Origin: Deltaproteobacteria bacterium
GTDB taxonomy: Bacteria; Myxococcota_A; Polyangia; Haliangiales; JADYYK01
Length of the DNA stretch: 16,849 nucleotides
NCBI GenBank assembly: GCA_020853705.1
Contig: JADYYK010000245.1
Span: forward strand, 71,943-88,791
Reading direction: 5' to 3'
Numbering within the stretch: the stretch's first letter is position 1; the number at the start of each line of letters is the position of its first letter. A program made the position numbers and the translations under genes. Below are positions 1,427 to 12,341 of the stretch, piece by piece. Below the pieces are notes generated by a model. That model worked only from the letters and a program-made list of their open reading frames with translations. It had not been told where the DNA came from and did no database searches.

Positions 1427-3460
1427 TCAGCGCACCTTGGTCCCGGGCGGCACATCGCAGTCGATGGCGGACAGGCCGATCACCTGCTCGTCCCCCGCCG
1501 CCAGGATCATACCCTCGGAGCGTACACCACGGATCGTCGCCGGCGCGAGATTGGCGAGGAAGATGACCTTCTTGCCGGGCAGCGCCTCGGCGGCGTAGGC
1601 AGCCGCGATGCCGGCCACCACGGTGCGGGTCTCGCCCCCCAGGTCGAGCGTCAGCTTGAGGAGCTTGTCGGCCTTGGGCACCTTCTCGGCGGTCTTGACC
1701 TCGGCCACGCGCAGGTCGAGCTTCTTGAAGTCGTCGTAGCTGATGCTGCCCGGGGGCGGCGCGGCGGCGGCTTGCGGGGCCTTGCCGGCGGACTTGTCGG
1801 CCGGCTTGTCGGCCTGCTTGTCGTTCTTCGGGTCGCCGCCCTTGTCGGGCTTCCTGACCGCCGGCTTGACGCCCCAGCGCGCCTTCAGCTCGGCCTTGCG
1901 GTCGTCGTCCAGGCGCGGCCACAGCGGCTCGCCAGGGACCACCTTCTGGCCCGACGTGAGCTCGCGTCCCCACGCACGCGGCCAGCGCAGCAGGCGCTCG
2001 GGGCCGCCGGGGACGCCCAGGCGGTCGAGGATCTCGCCCGCCTTCTTCGGCATGAAGGGCGCCACCATGAGGGCGATCCAGCTCAGCGCCTCCAGGAAGT
2101 GGCGCACGGTGTGGCTGAGCTCGGCGGCGCGCGCGGGATCCTTGGCCTGCACCCAGGGCGCGGCGTCGTCGATGTACTTGTTGCCACCGCGGACCAGCTC
2201 CCACAGCGCCTCCAGGGCGCGGGTCGGCTGCAGGCGCTCCATGTGCTCGGCCACGGTGTCGCGGGCGTGGATGGCCAGCGCGGCCAGCTTGCCGTGCACC
2301 GGGTGATCCTCGAACGCGCCCGGCTCCAGCCTGGGGATGACGCCGCCGGCGTAGAGCTCGGTCATCTTGACGCAGCGGTGCACCAGGTTGCCGAGGTCGT
2401 TGGCCAGGTCGGAGTTGAGGCGGCCCAGGAAGGCGTCGTGCGAGAAGTCGCCGTCGAGGCCGAACGAGGTCTCGCGCAGCAGGAAGTAGCGCAGCGCGTC
2501 GACCCCGACGTCAGCGGCGAGGCCGAGGGGATCGATGGCGTTGCCCAGCGACTTGGAGATCTTCTGCCCGTTGGCGGTCCACCAGCCGTGCGCGAACACC
2601 GTCTTCGGCAGCGGCAGGCCGGCGGCCAGCAGCATGGTTGGCCAGTACACCGCGTGGTGGCGCAGGATGTCCTTGCCGATGACGTGCACCGCCTGGGGCC
2701 AGAACTTGTCGTACTGCGCCGTGCCGGGGCCGCCCAGCGCGCTCATGTAGTTGGTCAGGGCGTCGATCCACACGTAGATCACGTGCTCGGGCGCGCCCGG
2801 CACCGGGATGCCCCACTTGAAGGTGCGCCGTGACACCGACAGATCGCGCAGGCCGGCCTTGACGAAGGCGACCACCTCGTTCTTGCGGAAGTCGGGCTGG
2901 ATGAACTCGGGGTGGGCCTCGATGTAGTCGAGCAGCGGCTGGGCATACTGCGCCATGCGGAAGAAGTACGACTGCTCCTTGAGGCGCTGCACTGGGCGCT
3001 TGTGATCGGGGCACAGGAAGACGCCGGGGGCGTCGCCGGGGACGAGCTGGGTCTCGGTGTAGAACGACTCGCAGCCGACGCAGTACCAGTCCTCGTAGTC
3101 GGCCAGGTAGATCGCGCCGGCGGCCTCCAGGCGGCGCCAGATGTCAGCGACCACGTCCTTGTGGCGCTGCTCGGTGGTGCGGATGAAGTCGTCGTTGGAG
3201 ATGTCGAGCTTCTTCCAGGCGTCCTGGAAGCGGGCCACGAAGTGATCGGCGTGCGCGATCGGGGTGCGCCCGGCGGCGATCGCGGCCTCCTCGATCTTCT
3301 GCCCGTGCTCGTCGGTGCCGGTCAGGAACCAGGTGTCCTGGCCGCGCGCGCGGTGGTAGCGCGCCAGCGCGTCGCACGCGATGGTGGTGTAGGCGCTGCC
3401 GATGTGCGGCGCGTCGTTGACGTAGTAGATCGGGGTCGTGACGTAGAAGGGGTCGGACAC
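1427..3460 (-). CDS. metG: Methionyl-tRNA synthetase with C-terminal EMAP/tRNA-binding (Trbp111-like) domain
   Basis: Class I aaRS motifs are present: HIGH (PHIGSAY) and KMSKS (KISKSLGN). C-terminal domain VAEVKTAEKVPKADKLLKLTLDLGGETRTVVAGIA. The N-terminus FYVTTPIYYVND aligns with MetRS starts. Start assigned to the GTG at 3458-3460 (VSDPFYVTTPIYY). The track ORF extension to 3595 is low-complexity and would overlap the upstream gene. Confidence 0.88.
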   Translation of the reverse strand: MSDPFYVTTPIYYVNDAPHIGSAYTTIACDALARYHRARGQDTWFLTGTDEHGQKIEEAAIAAGRTPIAHADHFVARFQDAWKKLDISNDDFIRTTEQRHKDVVADIWRRLEAAGAIYLADYEDWYCVGCESFYTETQLVPGDAPGVFLCPDHKRPVQRLKEQSYFFRMAQYAQPLLDYIEAHPEFIQPDFRKNEVVAFVKAGLRDLSVSRRTFKWGIPVPGAPEHVIYVWIDALTNYMSALGGPGTAQYDKFWPQAVHVIGKDILRHHAVYWPTMLLAAGLPLPKTVFAHGWWTANGQKISKSLGNAIDPLGLAADVGVDALRYFLLRETSFGLDGDFSHDAFLGRLNSDLANDLGNLVHRCVKMTELYAGGVIPRLEPGAFEDHPVHGKLAALAIHARDTVAEHMERLQPTRALEALWELVRGGNKYIDDAAPWVQAKDPARAAELSHTVRHFLEALSWIALMVAPFMPKKAGEILDRLGVPGGPERLLRWPRAWGRELTSGQKVVPGEPLWPRLDDDRKAELKARWGVKPAVRKPDKGGDPKNDKQADKPADKSAGKAPQAAAAPPPGSISYDDFKKLDLRVAEVKTAEKVPKADKLLKLTLDLGGETRTVVAGIAAAYAAEALPGKKVIFLANLAPATIRGVRSEGMILAAGDEQVIGLSAIDCDVPPGTKVR

Positions 3461-3480
3461 GGGAGTCGGATGTACCGGAC

Positions 3481-3522
3481 AAACAGGCGACAGGCAACAG
3501 GTGACAGGCCACAGGCGACAGG
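3481..3522. repeat. Six tandem copies of a 7-bp unit NNACAGG (aaacagg cgacagg caacagg tgacagg ccacagg cgacagg) in the intergenic region upstream of metG
   Basis: Read directly from the sequence. It lies between the PSP1 stop (3555) and the metG start (3460). On the metG-sense strand it reads CCTGTNN x6. Confidence 0.7.
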
Positions 3523-3554
3523 GAATCCGGGGGGATGAGGGGCGGGAACGGGCG

Positions 3555-5966
3555 TCAGGCCGGGGGCAGGTCGTCGCCAGGCAGCGGGCCGGCACCGCCA
3601 GGGCCAGCGGCGCCGCCGTCGTCGTCGGGCTCGGGGTCGCGGCGGCGGCCCTGCGGCTGCGGTGGATCGACGCGGGCGACCACGTTGGCCGGGAAGACCT
3701 GCGAGCCGCCCTCCTCGAACCAGACCCGCACGCGCTGGCGCAGCACGTCGAGCTCGGCGACCTTGCCCTCGCCGGCCGGCGTGGTCACGCGCTTGCCCAG
3801 CTTGGGCAGGCCCTTGCCGAGCTCCCGGTAGGTCGACGCCTCGTAGACCAGGCAGCACTTGAGGCGGCCGCACTGGCCGGTGACCTTGGACGGGTTGAGC
3901 GGGAGGTTCTGCTCCTTGGCGTGCTTGATCGAGACCGGCTCGAAGCGCGGCAGGAAGGTGGAGCAGCACAGCTCGCGGCCGCAGGAGCCGATGCCCCCGA
4001 CGATCTTGGCCTCGTCGCGGGCGCCGATCTGGCGCAGCTCGACGCGCACGCGCAGCCGGGTGGTCAGCTCCTTGACCAGGTCGCGGAAGTCGACGCGATC
4101 CTCGGAGGCGAAGTAGACCAGGACCTTCTGGCCCTTGTGGATGTAGTCGCAGCGCACCATCTTGATGGGCAACCTGCGCTCGCGGGTGCGCTCGCGGGCG
4201 AAGCGCAGGGCCTCGGCGGCGCGGTCGTCGAAGGCGCGCTCGGCGGCCAGGTCGGCGGCGGTGGCGCGGCTGAGGATGCGCGGCAGCTCGCCGGCGACCA
4301 GGCGGCGCGCCGAGGCGATGACCACGCGGCCGATGCTGACGCCCTGCTCGAAGTCGCACAGCACGTGATCGCCGCGCTGGTAGGCCTCGCCCTGGGCGTC
4401 ATAGTCGTAGATCTTGCCGGCCTCGCGGAAGTTGACGCCGACCACGTTGGTCAGCATGCCGGAGGCGTAGGGCACGTCGTCGAGCTGCGCGAAGACCTCG
4501 TCCTGATCGGGGTCAGCCGCCTCGCGGTCGGCGTGGAAGGTCTTGAAGACCACGGGGGCGTCGTCGTCGCCGTCGTCGTCATCACCGGCGCCGGCGCCGG
4601 CGCCGGCCGCGGGCGTGGGGCCGGAGTCGCGCAGCATGGGCAGCGCGACCAGGCCGCCACGGCGCGCGTCGGCGGCGTGGCGTGCGGTGGCCGAGGGCGG
4701 CGCGGTGGGGGCGCCGAAGGGTGACGGCGCGGCGGCGACAGGCGCGGGTGCGGTCGGGGCCGGGCCTGCACCGGTGATGGGGGCGTCGTCCCAGCCGTCA
4801 TCGATGGCGGCCTGGGTCCGGGGGCCGGGCGGTGGGCCCGGGGGGGCGCCGCGGGGCGCCTCGGGGCGTCCGTGGCGCGGCTCGCCGTGGCGGGGCCCGC
4901 CCTGCGGACGGCCCTGGTCCCGGCCGCGCTCGCGGTCGCGTCCGCCACGATCGGGTCGGCCGCGATCGCCACGGGGGCCGCGGTCGCCGCGGGGGCCGCC
5001 GCGATCGCTGACCGGGCGGTCGCCGGGAGCGCCAGGCCCGCCCGCGGCGCCTTGCCCCGGCGCCTCGCCGGGTGGGCGGGGCCGGTCGTCACGTCGTGGC
5101 CCGCGGTCGTCGCGACGGGGGCCGCGCTCATCGGGCCGCCGCCCGCGCTCGCCGCCGCGCCGACCCTCCGGGCGGGGGCCGCGGTCGCCTTCGGGCCGCG
5201 CCGCGCGGTCGCCTTCGGGCCGCGCCGCGCGGTCGCCCTCGGGCCGTTCCGCGCGGTCGCCTTCGGGTCGCGGCGAAGCTTCGGTGGCTGCCCCCGCGTC
5301 AGGAGCTGCGCCCTCGGGTCGCGGGCCGCGCTCGTGCGGTCGGCCCCCCCCGCGCTCACCGTGCGGCCGGGGCCCGCGCTCACCGTGCGGCCGACCACCG
5401 CGCTCACCCTGCGGCCGGGGCCCGCGCTCGCCTTGCGGGCGACCGCCGCGGTCGCCCTCGGGTCGCGGCCCGCGCTCGTGACGATGGCGACCCTCGGGCC
5501 GGGGCCCGCGCGCCTCCTGCGCTGGCCGGTCACCCGCTGGCCTGGCCTCGCTGGCCCCTGCTTGCGTCGGCGCCGCCGCTCCCGGCGCCGCTGGCGCTGC
5601 ATCATCATCGGGGCCGTCGTCGGGCCCCTCGGCCTCGCCACCCGGGGCGCCCCCTGGACGATCGCCGCCGCCACGCCCGCGCCGCCGCCTGCGCCGCCGC
5701 CGCTCGCCGTCGCCCCCGCCGGCACCGCCGCCAGCGCCAGCACCGCCGGCCCCGCCAGCGCCAGCGCCGCCGCCCCCGCTCGCACCACGGCCGCCCGCGC
5801 CGCCGCTCGCGCCACCGCCACCCGCGCCAGCCGCACCACCACCACCAGCGCCGCCGCCGCTCGCACCACCGCCACCCGCGCCAGCCGCACCACCACCACC
5901 CGCGCCGCCGCTGCTCGCGCCCCCGCCGCTCGCGCCTGCGCCAGCACCGCTCTCGTTCTCGCTCAT
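3555..5966 (-). CDS. PSP1 C-terminal-domain protein (RicT/YaaT family). The conserved domain is 3555..4457. It has a possible long Gly/Arg/Pro-rich low-complexity N-terminal extension. Start is uncertain: ATG 5966, GTG 6017 or ATG 4457.
   Basis: The C-terminal 300 aa (MLTNVVGVNFREAGKIYDYD...RVDFRDLVKEL...ELRQIGARDEAKIVGGIGSCGRELCCSTFL...FEPVSIKHAKEQNLPLNPSKVTGQCGRLKCCLVYE) align along their length with B. subtilis YaaT. In frame upstream of M(4457), non-low-complexity residues (APVVFKTFHADREAADPDQDEVFAQLDDVPYASG) suggest the protein starts further upstream. ATG 5966 has a GGAG 11 nt upstream. The N-terminal ~500 aa are (GGA)n and 8-aa ERGPRPxG/RPEGDRAA repeats with high GC3. Confidence 0.55.
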   Translation of the reverse strand: MSENESGAGAGASGGGASSGGAGGGGAAGAGGGGASGGGAGGGGAAGAGGGGASGGAGGRGASGGGGAGAGGAGGAGAGGGAGGGDGERRRRRRRRGRGGGDRPGGAPGGEAEGPDDGPDDDAAPAAPGAAAPTQAGASEARPAGDRPAQEARGPRPEGRHRHERGPRPEGDRGGRPQGERGPRPQGERGGRPHGERGPRPHGERGGGRPHERGPRPEGAAPDAGAATEASPRPEGDRAERPEGDRAARPEGDRAARPEGDRGPRPEGRRGGERGRRPDERGPRRDDRGPRRDDRPRPPGEAPGQGAAGGPGAPGDRPVSDRGGPRGDRGPRGDRGRPDRGGRDRERGRDQGRPQGGPRHGEPRHGRPEAPRGAPPGPPPGPRTQAAIDDGWDDAPITGAGPAPTAPAPVAAAPSPFGAPTAPPSATARHAADARRGGLVALPMLRDSGPTPAAGAGAGAGDDDDGDDDAPVVFKTFHADREAADPDQDEVFAQLDDVPYASGMLTNVVGVNFREAGKIYDYDAQGEAYQRGDHVLCDFEQGVSIGRVVIASARRLVAGELPRILSRATAADLAAERAFDDRAAEALRFARERTRERRLPIKMVRCDYIHKGQKVLVYFASEDRVDFRDLVKELTTRLRVRVELRQIGARDEAKIVGGIGSCGRELCCSTFLPRFEPVSIKHAKEQNLPLNPSKVTGQCGRLKCCLVYEASTYRELGKGLPKLGKRVTTPAGEGKVAELDVLRQRVRVWFEEGGSQVFPANVVARVDPPQPQGRRRDPEPDDDGGAAGPGGAGPLPGDDLPPA
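5181..5494. repeat. In-frame 24-nt (8-codon) tandem repeats, two related families: gcggtcgccttcgggccgcgccgc x4 at 5181-5276 and cgcgctcaccgtgcggccggggcc x6 at 5351-5494. On the minus strand they encode RPEGDRAA / ERG(P/G)RP(H/Q)G repeats.
   Basis: Direct inspection of the sequence. The period is exactly 24 nt and keeps the reading frame of the PSP1 N-terminal extension. Confidence 0.65.
5700..5945. repeat. Imperfect ~51-nt tandem repeats (gccgccgccgctcgcaccaccgccacccgcgccagccgcaccaccaccacc...) encoding a poly-Gly/Ala tract (GGGASGGGAGGGGAAGAGGGGASGG...) on the minus strand
   Basis: Direct inspection of the sequence. The repeated blocks are visible in both the DNA and the minus-strand translation. 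Confidence 0.55.
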
Positions 5967-6006
5967 CTCGCTTCGGCTCCGGCGCCCGTCCCTGTGCTCG
6001 CGCGAC

Positions 6007-7017
6007 TCACGCCGCACGCAGCTGGAACACGAGCTGCTCCAGTGTCAGATCCACCGCCGCGAACGCCCGCAGCGCGCTCGCGGCCTCGGCCGTCGCGCGC
6101 GCCGCCGCCACGCAGCGGGCCCCTCCGCGCGCGGCATCGACCGCCAGCCCTTCATCATCATCGACGGCGTGCACCAGCCGCGTGACCTCGGCGCCGCTGG
6201 CCAGCAGCGCGCCGTCGCGCCAGTACAGCGTCAGCAGGTCCAGCGCGTCCGCCAGGGTCTCCTTCTCGTGCTCCTGCTTCAGCTCGGCCGCGGCGTCGAG
6301 CACCTCGGCCGCGCCGGTCCCGCGTGCCGCCGCGCGCAGCCGCCGCGCCACCGCGCGCCGCGCCGCCATGGCCTCCTCGTCGAGGCTGGCCAGCGCGCGA
6401 CCCAGGCTGCCGCCCGCCAGCGCGGCCAGCTCCTCGCTGCGCGCCGCGGCCACCGCGTGGCGCTCGCGCAGCACGCGCGCCACCACGCTGGCCGGAAGCG
6501 GCGCGAAGCGCACGCGCTGGCAGCGCGACCGGATGGTGGGCAGCAGCTGCTCGGGTGCCGCGCTGACCAGCACGAACACCGTGCGCGGCGGCGGCTCCTC
6601 CAGCGTCTTCAGGATCTGGTTGGCGCTGGTCGGGTTGAGGCGCTCGGCCTCGTCGATGATGATGACCCGGGCACGGCCCTCGTGCGGGGGCAGCGTCAGG
6701 CGCTGGCGCACGACGTCGATGGACTCCTTGGTGATCTGCCGCGCCGCGCCGGTCGGCTCGACCCGCAAGACGTCGGGGTGCAGGTCGCGCGCGATGCGAT
6801 CGCACGCCGCGCACAGCCCGCACGGACCGCCCGGCTCGAGGCAGTTCAGCGCCTGCGCCAGCACCAGCGCGGCGCGCGCCTTGCCGACGCCGGTCGGCCC
6901 CGCGAACAGGTAGGCGTGGGCGACGCGGTCCGCGCTCAGCGCGTGGCGCAGCATGGCCAGGGCGCGCTCCTGCCCGTGCAGCTCATCCCACGTGGTCTTG
7001 CCGCTGCTGCCGCTCAC
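6007..7017 (-). CDS. holB: DNA polymerase III subunit delta-prime (clamp-loader AAA+ protein)
   Basis: TTWDELHGQERALAMLRHALSADRVAHAYLFAGPTGVGK (Walker A-like GPTGVGK), zinc-module Cys NCLEPGGPCGLCAAC, IIIDEAERL, and LKTLEEPP (T-L-E-E-P-P delta-prime signature). Start assigned to the GTG at 7015-7017. The track ORF continues to 8814 but that stretch is antisense to a well-supported kinase gene. Confidence 0.8.
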   Translation of the reverse strand: MSGSSGKTTWDELHGQERALAMLRHALSADRVAHAYLFAGPTGVGKARAALVLAQALNCLEPGGPCGLCAACDRIARDLHPDVLRVEPTGAARQITKESIDVVRQRLTLPPHEGRARVIIIDEAERLNPTSANQILKTLEEPPPRTVFVLVSAAPEQLLPTIRSRCQRVRFAPLPASVVARVLRERHAVAAARSEELAALAGGSLGRALASLDEEAMAARRAVARRLRAAARGTGAAEVLDAAAELKQEHEKETLADALDLLTLYWRDGALLASGAEVTRLVHAVDDDEGLAVDAARGGARCVAAARATAEAASALRAFAAVDLTLEQLVFQLRAA

Positions 7018-7027
7018 CGACGCACCA

Positions 7028-7037
7028 TAGCATGCTA
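7028..7037. promoter_or_regulatory. Perfect 10-bp AT-rich palindrome TAGCATGCTA within the 30-bp gap between divergent holB (minus) and kinase (plus) start codons. Candidate operator or core promoter element.
   Basis: Read directly from the sequence. It is 40% GC in a ~75% GC context and lies in the only intergenic DNA between two divergent genes. Confidence 0.3.
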
Positions 7038-7047
7038 CAAACGGGAC

Positions 7048-8918
7048 ATGACCCCGGCCGAGCGGGCGCTCGCCATCGGAGACCGCTATCGCGAGCTCGG
7101 GCTCCCTGCCGCAGCAGGCGCCGCCTACCGCCGCGCCGGCCTGCTCGATCCCGCGCCGGGAGTGGCCTCGCGACGGCTGGCCGAGCTGGCGCTGGCCGAG
7201 GGCGACGGCGCCGCCGCCAAGCGCCACGCCGACGACGCCAGCCGTCGCCAGCCCGGGCCATCGACGCGCCTTCTGGTCGGGCGCGCCGCGCTGGCCGCGG
7301 GCGAGCTGGCCGCGGCCCGCTTCGCCTTCACCGCGGTGGTCGAGGGCGCCGCGCGCGACGCCCGCCTGCGCGCCGAGGCGCACATCGGCCGCGCCGAGGT
7401 GGCCCTGGCCGAGGGTGACAGCGCGGGCGGCTTCGCGCACCTGGCCGCCGCGGTCGACGATCACCCCGACGACGCCGACGTCATCGCCCGCGTCGGCACC
7501 CTGGCGGTCGCCACCGGGCGCGCCGCGGAGCTCCTGGCGCGCACCCGCGAGGAGGTCACCAGTCGGCCGCAGTCGCACTCGGCGCAGGCCATCCACGCCG
7601 AGGTGCTGGCCGCCGCGCAGGCCGCCGGCGCCGCCCCAGTCGCCGACGCCGAGATCGAGCAGGCGCTGGAGCGCACCCTGACCCTGGACCCCCGCGATCA
7701 CGGCGCGCGCCTCAAGCTCGGGCTGCGCCTGCTGCGCCGCCGCTTCCGCGACACCGGGGCCCGCCAGCGCGCCCTGGTCGAGCTGGAGCGGCTGGCCGCC
7801 GAGCTGGGCGCCGGTCCGGCGCGCGCCCGGGTCGACCTCCTGCTGGCCGGCCTGTACGACGACGACGAGGCCACCGCGACCGCCGCCGCCGCCGCCGCCG
7901 AGCGCGCCCTCGACGCGCGCCCCGGGGACGCCGCCGCGCTGGGCACCCTGGGCATGCTGGCGCTGCGCCGCGATGACCTGCCGCGCGCGCGCGCCCGCTT
8001 GCTGGCCGCGGTCGGTCGCGCCCCGCGTGACGATGGCGCCTACCACACGCTGGCGCGGCTGCTCTACGCCGAGCGCGCCACCCGGACGCTGGCCGACGAC
8101 GTCGGCGCGGTGCTGGGCGCCGCGGTGCCCGCCCTGGGCGAGGCCGCCGTCGACGCCGGGGACGCCGCCGCGCGCCTGCTGCACGCGCTGACCGAGGTCG
8201 CGCGGGCCGACGTCTACGAGGGCCTGTACACCAAGGGCCACCAGCTCAAGAACCTGCTCGGGATCGCGGGCGCGCGGGCGCGCAGCGCGGTCAAGGCGGC
8301 GCGCGCGGCCGGCGCCGCCCCCGATCTGCTGGCCAAGCACGAGGAGCTGACCAGCCACATCGGCGCGCTGTACGACGAGTGGGCCAGCTACCTGCGCACC
8401 ATGAAGGACGACTCGCCGCGCCTGGAGGCGGTGGCGGTCAATGGCCTCGCCGCCGAGGCCGCGCAGCTGGCGGCGCAGCGCGGCGGCGGCGCCCCGGTGC
8501 GCCTGGTGCCGGGCGGCGCGATGCCCGAGATCCGCGGCGATCGCGCGCGCCTGCGCGAGGCCCTGCTCAACCTGGTGGCCAACGCGCTGGAGGCGCAGGC
8601 CGAGGTCGACCCCAGCGCCGCGGTCGAGGTCGCGACGCGGGCGCTGCCCGGCGCGTCGGGCGCCGCGCCACGGGTCGAGATCGAGATCCGCGATCGGGGG
8701 CCGGGGATCGCGCGCGCCGATCTGCGCCGCATCTTCGCGCCCGGCTTCACCACCAAGGAGGGCGGCTCGGGCTTCGGCCTGGCCATCGCCGAGCGCGTGG
8801 TCGCCGCGCACCACGGCCGCATCGCCATCGACAGCGAGCCCGGGCGCGGCACCACGGTGCGCATCGATCTGCCCAGCGACCTCGAGGGGCTGGCCGCGGT
8901 GCCCAGGGTGTCGAGCTG

Positions 8919-8919
<1 letters not shown>
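7048..8919 (+). CDS. Soluble sensor histidine kinase: N-terminal TPR-like repeat region plus C-terminal HATPase_c catalytic domain. No TM segments. Atypical DHp/H-box.
   Basis: ATG at 7048. N-box RLREALLNLVANALEA, G1 box IEIRDRGPGI, F box FAPGFTTKEG, G2 box GGSGFGLAIAERVV. The N-terminal ~400 aa are Ala/Leu-rich with TPR-like periodicity (LAELALAEGDGAAAKRH...). Its stop TGA (8917-8919) overlaps the ATG of the response regulator (TGATG). Confidence 0.8.
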
Positions 8920-10423
<1,504 letters not shown>

Positions 10424-10427
<4 letters not shown>

Positions 10428-11305
10428 GCGTGTTCGACCGCATCCGGGCGGCGCTGAAGTCGAACCTGGACGGCCTCTGGGGCAAGGCCAGGGGGGCGCG
10501 TGACGCTCGCAAGGTCAGCGCGCTGGAGGCCGATCTGGCGACCGGGCGGCGCGAGCTGGCGCTGCTGCTGGCCGCCGAGGCGCGCCTCGAGCAGCAGGGC
10601 CGCGACAAGGTGGCCATGGTGCGCAAGCTGGCGGCCCAGATCGAGCAGGCGGCGCGGGCCGGCAACAAGCCGCTGGCGAGCGCCGCGCTGGCGCAGAAGA
10701 AGCGCGCCGAGGACGAGACCCGGGCGCTGGCCAAGGTGCTGGCGGGGCAGCGCAAGGAGACCGACGAGCTGCAGAAGAACCTGGATGAGCTGGAGAGCAA
10801 GCTCGCGGAGGTCAACGGGACCCGGGCGGGCGCGGGCGCGGGAGCGAAGACGAGTTCGAGCACGAGCGGGAGCACGAGTTCGAGCAGGAGCACGAGTTCG
10901 AGCGGGAGCACGAGTTCGAGCGGGAGCACGAGTTCCAGTTCGAGTTCGAAGGCGGGCAGCAAGAAGTCGACCTCGTTCGTCGATGACGACGGGCTGCCCG
11001 ATCTGTCGCGCTTCGACGTCGGCGATGACGACATCGATCAGGACGCCATCCGCGCCGCCGCGGACGCCGAGGTCGAGGCCACGGTGCGCGCGGCGGAGAA
11101 CTTCGGCATGGCCGAGGAGGAGCTGAAGTCGCGCCGCATGGACCTCGAGCTCGAGCGGCTCAAGCAGAAGATGCGCGCGGGTGGGGCAGGGGCCGCGAGC
11201 CGGCCCAGCGCTGCCAAGGCTCAGCCCGCCCGCCCGTCCGCCAGGAAGCCGGCGCCGAGCAGCGATCCGCTGGCCGAGCTCAAGAAGAAGCTGGATCGCA
11301 AGTGA
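10424..11305 (+). CDS. PspA/IM30 (phage-shock protein A)-like coiled-coil protein, atypical. N-terminal PspA-like region (~150 aa), Ser-rich tandem-repeat linker, acidic C-terminal domain.
   Basis: The N-terminus MSVFDRIRAALKSNLDGLWGKA resembles the PspA N-terminus [22 protein letters not shown]. It is followed by a heptad-like Ala/Glu/Arg/Lys-rich coiled coil (LEQQGRDKVAMVRKLAAQIEQAARAG...DELQKNLDELESKLAEV). GTG start (GTGA overlap with the RR stop) preceded by GGAGGG. Adjacent to a sigma54 activator, as in psp loci. Confidence 0.5.
10850..10945. repeat. About 5 tandem copies of an 18-nt unit acgagttcgagcgggagc, encoding (TSSSGS)n in the PspA-like protein linker
   Basis: Direct inspection: acgagttcgagcacgagcgggagc / acgagttcgagcaggagc / acgagttcgagcgggagc / acgagttcgagcgggagc / acgagttccagttcgagttcg. 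Confidence 0.7.
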
Positions 11306-11709
11306 GCGCGCGCCCGGCTGAACAGCGCCTGGGCGACGCGCTGCTGCTCCGCCTCGCCGACCTGGCCCGCGTCGAGCTCGACGTCCTGGTCGCCGGCGCC
11401 ACGCCCGAGCACGGCCGCCAGCTGGTCGCGGCGCACGTCGAGGATCTGGCCGACGCCCTGGCCGACGCCCGCGATCTGGTCATCTCGCTGGACCGCGCGC
11501 CGCCCGGCGCCCGCGCCTCGGAGCAGGACCCGCTCGGCTTCGCCGAGGCGCCCGCGGCCACCCGCCGCGAGCTGTCCGACGAGGAGCTCGAGCGCCTCGG
11601 CGCGGCCCTGCTGACGCGCGCCGAGCGCCGCCGCCACGCCGCCGCGCTGGAGGCCGCCGCCGCGCCGCTCCTCATCAAGCTGCGCGACGCCGAGCGCCGC
11701 CTGGTCTGA
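11302..11709 (+). CDS. Hypothetical acidic Ala/Leu-rich protein (135 aa), translationally coupled to the PspA-like gene (GTGA overlap)
   Basis: GTG start overlaps the stop of the upstream gene. Codon usage is strongly GC3-biased (ctg/gcc/gac/cgc). No recognisable motif and no TM segment. Confidence 0.5.
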   Translation: MSARPAEQRLGDALLLRLADLARVELDVLVAGATPEHGRQLVAAHVEDLADALADARDLVISLDRAPPGARASEQDPLGFAEAPAATRRELSDEELERLGAALLTRAERRRHAAALEAAAAPLLIKLRDAERRLV

Positions 11710-11732
11710 GCGCCGACGCGAGCGGCGACTTG

Positions 11733-12341
11733 CTACACCCCGCTGCGCCGGTGGCGCAGCAGATCCAGGAACTCGCCGCGCGTCCTGGCGTCCTCGCGAA
11801 AGCGCCCCAGCATGGTCGACGTGATGGCGTAGCTGTTCTGCTTCTCCACCCCGCGCATCATCATGCAAAGGTGCTGCGCCTCGCTGACCACGGCGACGCC
11901 GGGGGCGCCGATCAGCTCCTCGATGGTGCGCGCGATCTGGTTGGTCATGGTCTCCTGCACCTGCAGGCGGCGCGCGAAGACGTCGACCAGCCGGGCCAGC
12001 TTGCTCAGGCCGATGACCCGGCCGGCGGGCAGATAGCCGATGTGACACTTGCCGAAGAAGGGCAGCAGGTGGTGCTCGCACAGGCTGAAGAACTCGATGT
12101 CCTTCACGATCACCATCTCGTCCGAGTCGGTCTCGAACATGGCGTCGTTGAGCACCACGCGGGGGTCCTGCTCGTAGCCGCGGGTCAGGAACGACAGCGC
12201 CTGCGCGACCCGGCGCGGCGTGCGGGCCAGCCCCTCTCGCTCGGGGTTCTCACCGATGAGCTCGAGCTGCCGCCGCACCAGGGTCTCGAGCTCGGCACGT
12301 GCCGCCTCCGGGATGCCGGGACGTTCCTCTTGCTTTGCCAT
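11733..12341 (-). CDS. folE: GTP cyclohydrolase I
   Basis: [21 protein letters not shown] (Zn-binding CEHH...C motif), [11 protein letters not shown] and HLCMMMRGV are the characteristic FolE blocks. ATG at 12339-12341. Confidence 0.92.

Follow-up and report, generated by a model that had tools for sequence, protein, structure and literature searches.

We analyzed a 16,849-nt stretch of DNA (the window) from a Deltaproteobacteria bacterium (GenBank assembly GCA_020853705.1, contig JADYYK010000245.1, positions 71,943 to 88,791), which carries a ricT (yaaT/PSP1) gene on the minus strand. The data indicated that positions 4458-5966 (-) almost certainly encode the N-terminal 503 residues of an 803-aa RicT protein, and that these residues are translated, under selection and disordered. 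The full-length coding sequence was placed at 3555..5966 (-), 803 codons plus a stop at 3555-3557, on the basis of the list of open reading frames (ORFs), family matches and a conserved start. An earlier interpretation of the same DNA, made without database searches (the sequence-only reading), had described a RicT/PSP1 homolog with an N-terminal extension of about 500 aa rich in Gly, Arg and Pro, with an over-extended ORF or annotation artefact as the alternative. The selection and frame evidence given below upheld the extension, at 503 residues.

The folded part of the protein is that of an ordinary RicT. B. subtilis RicT (YaaT) is the Fe-S subunit of the RicAFT 'Y-complex', which is associated with RNase Y, and the characterised Bacillus protein is compact (about 275 aa) and tail-less. 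The window protein has a homologous body (242 bits to RicT_YaaT_fam) and an identical six-cysteine motif, but differs in its 503-aa disordered N-terminal extension. Positions 3555..4457 (-) comprise the canonical body of RicT/YaaT (residues 504-760), followed by a Pro/Gly/Asp-rich C-terminal tail of 43 aa and the stop, as determined with NCBIfam, Pfam and AlphaFold2. RicT_YaaT_fam (NCBIfam NF041131) matched residues 533-741 with 241.8 bits (cut-off 70), and Pfam PSP1 (PF04468) matched residues 563-647 with 87.4 bits (cut-off 27). Among the matches listed, ordinary RicT homologues in named genomes aligned from residue ~505, that is, from the Met at 4457, in agreement with the earlier statement that the YaaT-like domain is confined to the last 300 codons. 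The putative Fe-S motif CX4CCX30CX4CC (3852..3983 (-); C662, C667, C668, C699, C704 and C705, read from the translation) was invariant in all six cysteines across 60 relatives. Its spacing equals the cluster-ligating spacing of Bacillus RicT, in which C161, C166, C167, C198 and C203 are the Fe-S ligands in B. subtilis and which is shared by Firmicutes RicT (PMC6751060); the ligand motif is intact. AlphaFold2, run with a 60-sequence alignment, gave the RicT body a predicted local distance difference test score (pLDDT) above 90 except in the cofactor-free Cys loop; a PDB sequence search found no solved RicT structure. The single-domain compact architecture of the Bacillus protein was not matched by this 803-aa protein with its body from residue 504, yet its sequence clearly keeps the long-tailed protein within the RicT family, as an architectural variant.

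Read from GTG 6017, the ORF 3555..6017 (-) has 820 codons, and from ATG 5966 it has 803; it thus continues 503 codons upstream of the domain, matching the ~1.5 kb claimed before. The sequence-only reading had put this region at ~85% GC with several frames open at once; the extension DNA was 83% GC, and the other frames were nearly open, with 1-3 stops in four of the other five and 13 in the fifth. The chance of a 503-codon open frame was 0.038 in the window alone, and openness of the ORF was dropped as weak evidence of coding. Because openness alone proves nothing, comparative tests were needed.

The extension was compared with that of a close relative, locus L084 (GCA_963853155.1, CAWKVE010000002.1, an 8-Mb contig), in a DNA alignment made without protein guidance. 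The two extensions were 84.7% identical in DNA and differed by four indels of 18, 18, 24 and 9 nt, all multiples of three. The mismatches were distributed over codon positions 1/2/3 as 32/31/158. In the ORF frame the proportion of synonymous differences (pS) was 0.352 and that of nonsynonymous differences (pN) was 0.074, which gave a ratio of nonsynonymous to synonymous substitution rates (dN/dS) of 0.16 (Nei-Gojobori), whereas by the same method the two remaining sense frames had ratios of 3.6 and 2.9. For reference, the RicT domain was 97.2% identical to that of L084 in DNA, with pS 0.082 and pN 0.006. The length changes are all in frame and the substitutions mostly synonymous, which answers the earlier suggestion to look at whether repeat copy number preserves the frame, and the comparison indicates that purifying selection maintains the amino acid sequence of the tail.

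The repeats within the gene gave the same result. Differences between repeat units piled up at codon position 3 of the ORF frame (3/4/12 over the three positions in the RPEGDRAA array), and synonymous differences between units numbered 7, 12 and 10 in the ORF frame, against 0/2, 0/4 and 3/3 in the other two frames. Tandem Repeats Finder reported periods of 24/48 nt at 5180-5272 and 5309-5492, and of 27/54/81 nt at 5690-5936. The longest exact repeat matches were 34 nt at a distance of 24 and 35 nt at a distance of 54, and all repeat distances in the extension were multiples of 3. The 24-nt period of the sequence-only reading therefore stood, although its units are near-exact and not exact, while the Gly-rich period it had put at ~51 nt was measured as 54 nt (27/81). 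These patterns indicate that the tail is built and resized through in-frame tandem-repeat expansion.

The ORF frame was the only frame open in all five loci examined, namely the window, L084, L085, L001 and L002; the chance of an open frame was 0.012-0.12 per orthologue. The order of the blocks (MSxxE, Gly-rich, RRRRRRRGRGG, acidic patch, R/P/E/G/D repeats, I/F-D-x-G-W, Pro/Ala-rich, DPDG(E/D)x(V/I)F, domain) was kept in P0001, P0002, L084 and L085, down to 55-58% domain identity. In addition, Met was present at the canonical start position in 0 of 68 N-tailed homologues examined. The sequence-only reading had pointed to non-repetitive residues just 5' of M504 as an argument against a start at 4457, and this held: pN was 0 against L084 in this linker, and the majority consensus of 60 relatives there is DPDG(E/D)x(V/I)F.

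Several points weigh against the extension being a translated, disordered tail. Its GC content by codon position was 0.92/0.77/0.80, compared with 0.74/0.47/0.97 in the domain; third-position GC (GC3) is thus 0.80 in the extension and 0.97 in the domain. Codon usage in the tail is atypical, with GGT, CGT, CGA, GAA, GCT and GCA frequent there and nearly absent in the domain. The antisense frame that shares the wobble position had a dN/dS of 0.15, so dN/dS cannot separate it from the sense frame. Translation of the extension is argued from sequence comparison, and the low pLDDT of the tail may be partly due to the shallow alignment over it.

The probability that the repeat DNA encodes some other gene, either the frame +1 ORF 4451..5947 (-) of 498 aa or the antisense ORF 4543..5481 (+), is negligible: frame +1 has the highest third-position GC (0.92) and its counterpart is a 323-aa public call in GCA_963853155.1, but it has a dN/dS of 3.6, 1-3 stops in every orthologue and a product that matched no Pfam family, while the wobble-sharing antisense frame, despite its dN/dS, has 1-4 stops in each of the five orthologues and is excluded by these stops alone. 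The GC3 frame plot had favoured frame +1 as coding, a candidate overruled by dN/dS and stop codons; its signal is misleading because the tail is composed of G/R/P/E/D/A.

A start at M504 (ATG 4457), as in Bacillus YaaT, would make 4458-6006 a non-coding 1.5-kb repeat spacer. In favour of this reading, M504 falls exactly on the first residue of ordinary RicT proteins in alignments, few stops interrupt several of the other frames, GC3 falls to 0.64-0.84 in the extension, and JGI and NCBI gene calls in relatives leave the extension out. However, these points are outweighed by the dN/dS of 0.16, the presence of in-frame indels only and the 3-nt substitution periodicity, and by a frame open in five of five orthologues, the Met missing at the canonical start in orthologues, and motifs and block order conserved at 55-58% domain identity. 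Furthermore, there is no Shine-Dalgarno motif ahead of ATG 4457 (GCCTCCGGCATG). We regard such an over-extended ORF as very improbable, and as far as sequence goes it is refuted; the public calls in relatives instead truncate the gene or take the wrong frame.

The start of the tailed protein was placed at ATG 5966, which lies 40 nt 3' of the stop of holB. A GGAG Shine-Dalgarno-like motif is present at 5977..5980 (-), 10 nt 5' of this ATG, as the sequence-only reading had noted, and the L084 copy of the site (GGAGCCGAAGCGAGATG) is identical, with the same 40-nt spacer and GGAG. The start peptide is conserved as MSENES, MSDGEN and MSNEG in L084, L085 and L001. L084 has no in-frame start 5' of the ricT ATG, and therefore the conserved start is ATG 5966 and not GTG 6017. 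In every orthologue (L001, L002, L084 and L085) the long frame starts at or just 3' of the holB stop, with a GTGA overlap in L001 and L002 and a 14-nt gap in L085; the orthologue comparison called for earlier thus found the extension kept in the same frame. An internal start that would yield a 300-aa tail-less RicT from ATG 4457 alongside the 803-aa protein was judged improbable. A Met is retained at the canonical start in the window and L084, and in none of the 68 other N-tailed homologues examined, but no Shine-Dalgarno-like sequence lies 5' of ATG 4457, L085 has Thr at this position, and one Met can persist by chance.

The N-terminal disordered extension (residues 1-503; 4458..5966 (-)) was delimited by the comparison with L084, the open frames in orthologues and AlphaFold2. 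Gly makes up 26% of its 503 residues, Ala 17%, Arg 15% and Pro 14%; hydrophobic residues account for 4%, and 77 positive charges are balanced by 76 negative ones. It contains 25 RG and 8 RGG motifs, clustered in a disordered Gly-rich context as in RGG/RG-type regions. In the AlphaFold2 model residues 1-476 had pLDDT below 50 and no secondary structure, and the linker 481-503 had pLDDT ~70 with a short helix. Charge blocks consist of the poly-Arg run (+9 over 16 aa), a following patch with 8 acidic and 1 basic residues over 21 aa, and a second acidic patch near residue 470; the remaining charges are mostly finely mixed.

The tail can be divided into distinct parts, all on the minus strand. A Gly/Ala/Ser-rich head (residues 1-85, with 50 Gly, 22 Ala and 8 Ser; 5712..5966) is built of 27/54/81-nt repeats and evolves fastest within the tail (pS 0.50, pN 0.15 against L084). 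It is followed by the poly-arginine run ERRRRRRRRGRGGGD (residues 86-101; 5664..5711), conserved in P0001, P0002, L084 and L085, and by the acidic patch RPGGAPGGEAEGPDDGPDDD (residues 102-122; 5601..5663), conserved in L084. The octapeptide repeat region (residues 150-300; 5067..5519) consists of ERGPRPxG, RPEGDRAA and RGPRRDD units in 24/48-nt tandem repeats. In the RG/RD/Pro-rich segment (residues 301-385; 4812..5066; pS 0.31, pN 0.07) the long RG/RD stretches were 100% identical to L084 in protein despite the synonymous divergence. Next comes the conserved island AAIDDGWDDAPITG (IDDGW; residues 386-400; 4767..4811), a candidate short linear motif, in which D-x-G-W was invariant in the window, P0001 and P0002 and which was also found in L085 and in the majority consensus of 60 relatives. 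The second acidic patch and conserved pre-domain linker DDDGDDDAPVVFKTFHADREAADPDQDEVFAQLDDVPYASG (residues 471-503; 4458..4556) had pS 0.13 and pN 0 against L084, and the majority consensus of 60 relatives here reads DPDGEDVF. Tryptic peptides from around IDDGWDDAPITGAGPAPTAPAPVAAAPSPFGAPTAPPSATAR, within residues 1-503, would belong to the ricT tail. Selection varied along the tail. Synonymous divergence from L084 in the tail (pS 0.25-0.50) was 3-6 times that in the domain (0.08) and climbed steadily toward the N-terminus; relaxed codon bias, repeat-driven mutation or gene conversion, and the alignment of non-orthologous repeat units are possible reasons.

We also examined the distribution of tails among RicT homologues. 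The full-protein homologue search was swamped by low-complexity words (17 matches) and was repeated with residues 440-803. An exhaustive profile search found 6769 relatives, the best 150 of which were pooled with the matches of two word-index searches to give 278 homologues. Of these, 84 had at least 100 aa before the body, 74 had at least 100 aa after it, 13 had both, and 51 were compact. The tails were rich in R/G/P/D/E. A run of at least five R/K was present in 48 of the 84 N-tailed homologues, at a median of 24 aa from the N-terminus, and in 38 of the 74 C-tailed ones, at a median of 25 aa from the C-terminus. The window protein resembles these tail-bearing homologues in its R/G/P/D/E-rich repeats and in a poly-Arg run ~25 aa from the free terminus, but its tail is the longest of the pool (503 aa, the next being 377 aa) and its Gly-rich head of 85 aa is unusually long.

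Outside the nearest, Myxococcota-labelled relatives most tails were C-terminal. Among the matches listed, the named genomes with tails included Myxococcota, Chloroflexota and Lachnospiraceae, and the contig scan of genomes gave mostly Firmicutes and Chloroflexota with one Myxococcales metagenome-assembled genome (MAG). This MAG (L004) encodes a compact RicT of 281 aa whose gene shares an ATGA with holB; the tail is therefore lineage-specific. Lachnospiraceae, Sarcina and Acetatifactor genomes of 52-60% GC had C-terminal tails of 100-380 aa that finish at genuine stop codons and contain repeats such as RPRRPERGEDGQG and DRNDRGERSDR, and a 47% GC Flemingiibacterium had a 220-aa N-terminal RicT tail. 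Because they are present in genomes of 47-60% GC, the tails are a trait of the family and not a high-GC artefact. At high-GC Chloroflexota loci, upstream frames open by chance resembled unpatterned noise. The peptide RRDDRGPRRDDRGPR (RicT residues 271-300 of the window, ~5067-5156) recurred in the C-terminal tails of P0003 and P0004, RicT homologues with 51% domain identity; this reflects either a shift of the tail between termini or convergence. A search of the open-access literature found no paper on RicT/YaaT/PSP1 tails. The RicT tail architecture thus appears to be new, while lineage-specific Arg-rich disorder on RNA-handling proteins is known in general.

The function of the tail was considered from its composition and from related sequences. 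When the tail alone was used as query, five proteins matched. Of these, four were ribosomal protein S3 with tandem ERGPRPQG units, the octapeptide of the window tail, in C-terminal tails; the fifth, P0281, is a transmembrane protein without a Pfam family that carries RPEGDRGPR repeats. The full-length search also matched a DEAD-box helicase with DRGPRPEGDR repeats. The C-terminal tails of S3 and of a DeaD-type helicase from metagenomes (P0280, P0282-P0284 and P0017) resemble the RicT tail in their tandem (E/D)RGPRP(Q/E)G or DRGPRPEG units, but their folded domains differ, E-values ranged from 1e-10 to 3e-4, and convergence is possible. A PDB match of the tail to a ribosomal protein tail (E = 0.003) was marginal and of low complexity, and was set aside.

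The C-terminal disordered region of RNase E, which drives bacterial ribonucleoprotein (RNP) bodies, and eukaryotic RGG/RG motifs have in common with the window tail an Arg-rich, charge-patterned disorder on proteins of RNA metabolism. Unlike these regions, the window tail has mostly finely interleaved charges (R-P-E-G-D-R) and few blocks, namely the poly-Arg run and two acidic patches. Arg-rich disordered insertions in Rho, found in several phyla, are reported to confer higher RNA affinity (M. tuberculosis and M. luteus) or phase separation (B. thetaiotaomicron) (PMC11347177). Like them, the RicT tail is a lineage-specific, compositionally extreme disordered region on a housekeeping RNA-handling protein, but the family is unrelated, the insertion position is different, and the RicT tail is known from sequence only. 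RNase Y is bound by RicT in Bacillus, where specific mRNA cleavages and rRNA degradation depend on RicT (PMC10470536, PMC13230545), and the dynamics of YaaT are RNA-dependent, with the protein partly membrane-associated (PMC8945944).

The RG/RGG composition, the S3 and DEAD-box carriers of the repeat, the RicT-RNase Y interaction of Bacillus and the Rho insertions favour a role in RNA/RNP tethering or condensate partitioning, which we put forward tentatively, by analogy. We propose that the tail would be a multivalent tether to nucleic acid, with RNA or ribonucleoprotein as the most probable target. Binding would be by the poly-Arg tract near the terminus and the RG-rich octapeptide repeats, with the conserved islands IDDGW and ALPMLRD as candidate partner-binding motifs, and the tether would concentrate the Fe-S module of RicT at RNA, at ribosomes or at an RNase assembly. 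Identity as a tailed RicT and the tether role, judged jointly and with most of the weight on identity, are probable.

Other roles for a translated tail were weighed against RNA tethering: an entropic spacer or solubility bristle, a nucleoid/DNA tether, an anchor to anionic membrane or polyphosphate by way of the poly-Arg tract, or a scaffold for protein partners by way of the IDDGW and ALPMLRD islands. The argument for RNA binding is one of composition and analogy, any polyanion binds poly-Arg, and the repeat similarity among proteins may be convergent low complexity. The repeat unit is not exclusive to RNA proteins, because the transmembrane protein P0281 carries the same repeat. The location of the gene in the holB operon would suit a nucleoid/DNA tether, and the partial membrane association of Bacillus YaaT (PMC8945944) would suit an anchor; the conserved IDDGW and ALPMLRD islands point to protein partners, and tails at either terminus fit bulk physical properties. 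However, the other repeat carriers are mostly RNA-handling proteins (S3, DEAD-box helicase), and selection acts on specific residues, with RG/RD stretches fully conserved despite pS 0.31, which disfavours a pure spacer. A non-RNA role was considered somewhat less likely than RNA tethering, though it deserves to be kept in view.

At the locus, the minus-strand order is holB, the ricT ORF and metG, and window GC ranged from 68 to 86%. holB (DNA polymerase III delta'; 6007..7050 (-), TGA stop at 6009-6007; Pfam DNA_pol3_delta2, E = 2e-50) lies directly 5' of ricT, and metG (methionyl-tRNA synthetase; 1427..3430 (-)) lies 3' of it. The holB-ricT-metG order was kept in L001, L002, L004, L084 and L085; the Bacillus RicT gene is also directly downstream of holB. 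A 15-codon mini-ORF at 5963-6010 (-) has a GTG that overlaps the holB TGA (GTGA) and a TGA that overlaps the ricT ATG (ATGA); it could serve as a translation relay from holB to ricT, and was kept in L084 and absent in L085. In L084 a gene for a 594-aa sigma-54 activator on the opposite strand (8853-10637) separates ricT from metG; this gene is absent from the window, where the two are ~125 nt apart. The window metG has a Lys/Pro/Ala-rich low-complexity linker (KPAVRKPDKGGDPKNDKQADKPADKSAGKAPQAAAAPPPGS) ahead of its C-terminal tRNA-binding domain. The flank divergent from holB (7000-12341) contains a histidine kinase (HATPase_c), whose orthologue in a relative gave faint TPR matches, an NtrC-type sigma-54 activator (8379..10427 (+)), a PspA/IM30 protein (10424..11305 (+)) and GTP cyclohydrolase I (11733..12341 (-)). 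An Rfam search of window positions 3000-7000 found no RNA family.

Public gene calls in the relatives were also inspected. For L084 they comprise two proteins, one of 323 aa read from frame +1 of the tail and one of 268 aa that is a truncated PSP1. A GG insertion of 2 nt, which follows ...CTCAG (protein PRIL|S), splits the L084 ricT (6463-8807) inside the domain; with only 4 nonsynonymous differences in 299 codons, the gene has either been misassembled here or become a pseudogene very recently. L085 (JGI metagenome 3300006844, 2577-4478), which is 81% identical and has Thr at the canonical start position, has a 633-aa RicT frame open from 14 nt past holB, and the deposited call is 348 aa. The window protein, looked up by exact sequence with three alternative starts, had no match in a collection of 15 billion proteins. 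Owing to the amino acid composition of the tail, GC peaks at the first codon position, and gene finders that expect high GC3 therefore shorten the gene or choose the wrong frame. For annotation the lesson is practical: two public records show such wrong-frame or truncated calls.

The Fe-S protein RicT is widely conserved, but its molecular role is known only from Bacilli, where it helps RNase Y select RNA and ribosome targets; there, RicA and RicF deliver RicT to RNase Y. The poly-Arg tract and (E/D)RGPRP(Q/E)G repeats might form a shared targeting module that brings RicT, S3 and DEAD-box helicases into one RNA-protein assembly or condensate in Myxococcota and other bacteria, an idea that we rate as a long shot. 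If it were true, a bacterial RNA granule would contain RicT as an Fe-S component that senses redox state or iron, and the tail would replace or supplement the RicA/RicF delivery route of Bacillus. The long, selected, Arg-rich disordered tails of many homologues outside Bacilli offer a testable handle on how RicT contacts its substrates in bacteria where the Bacillus partners may be absent.

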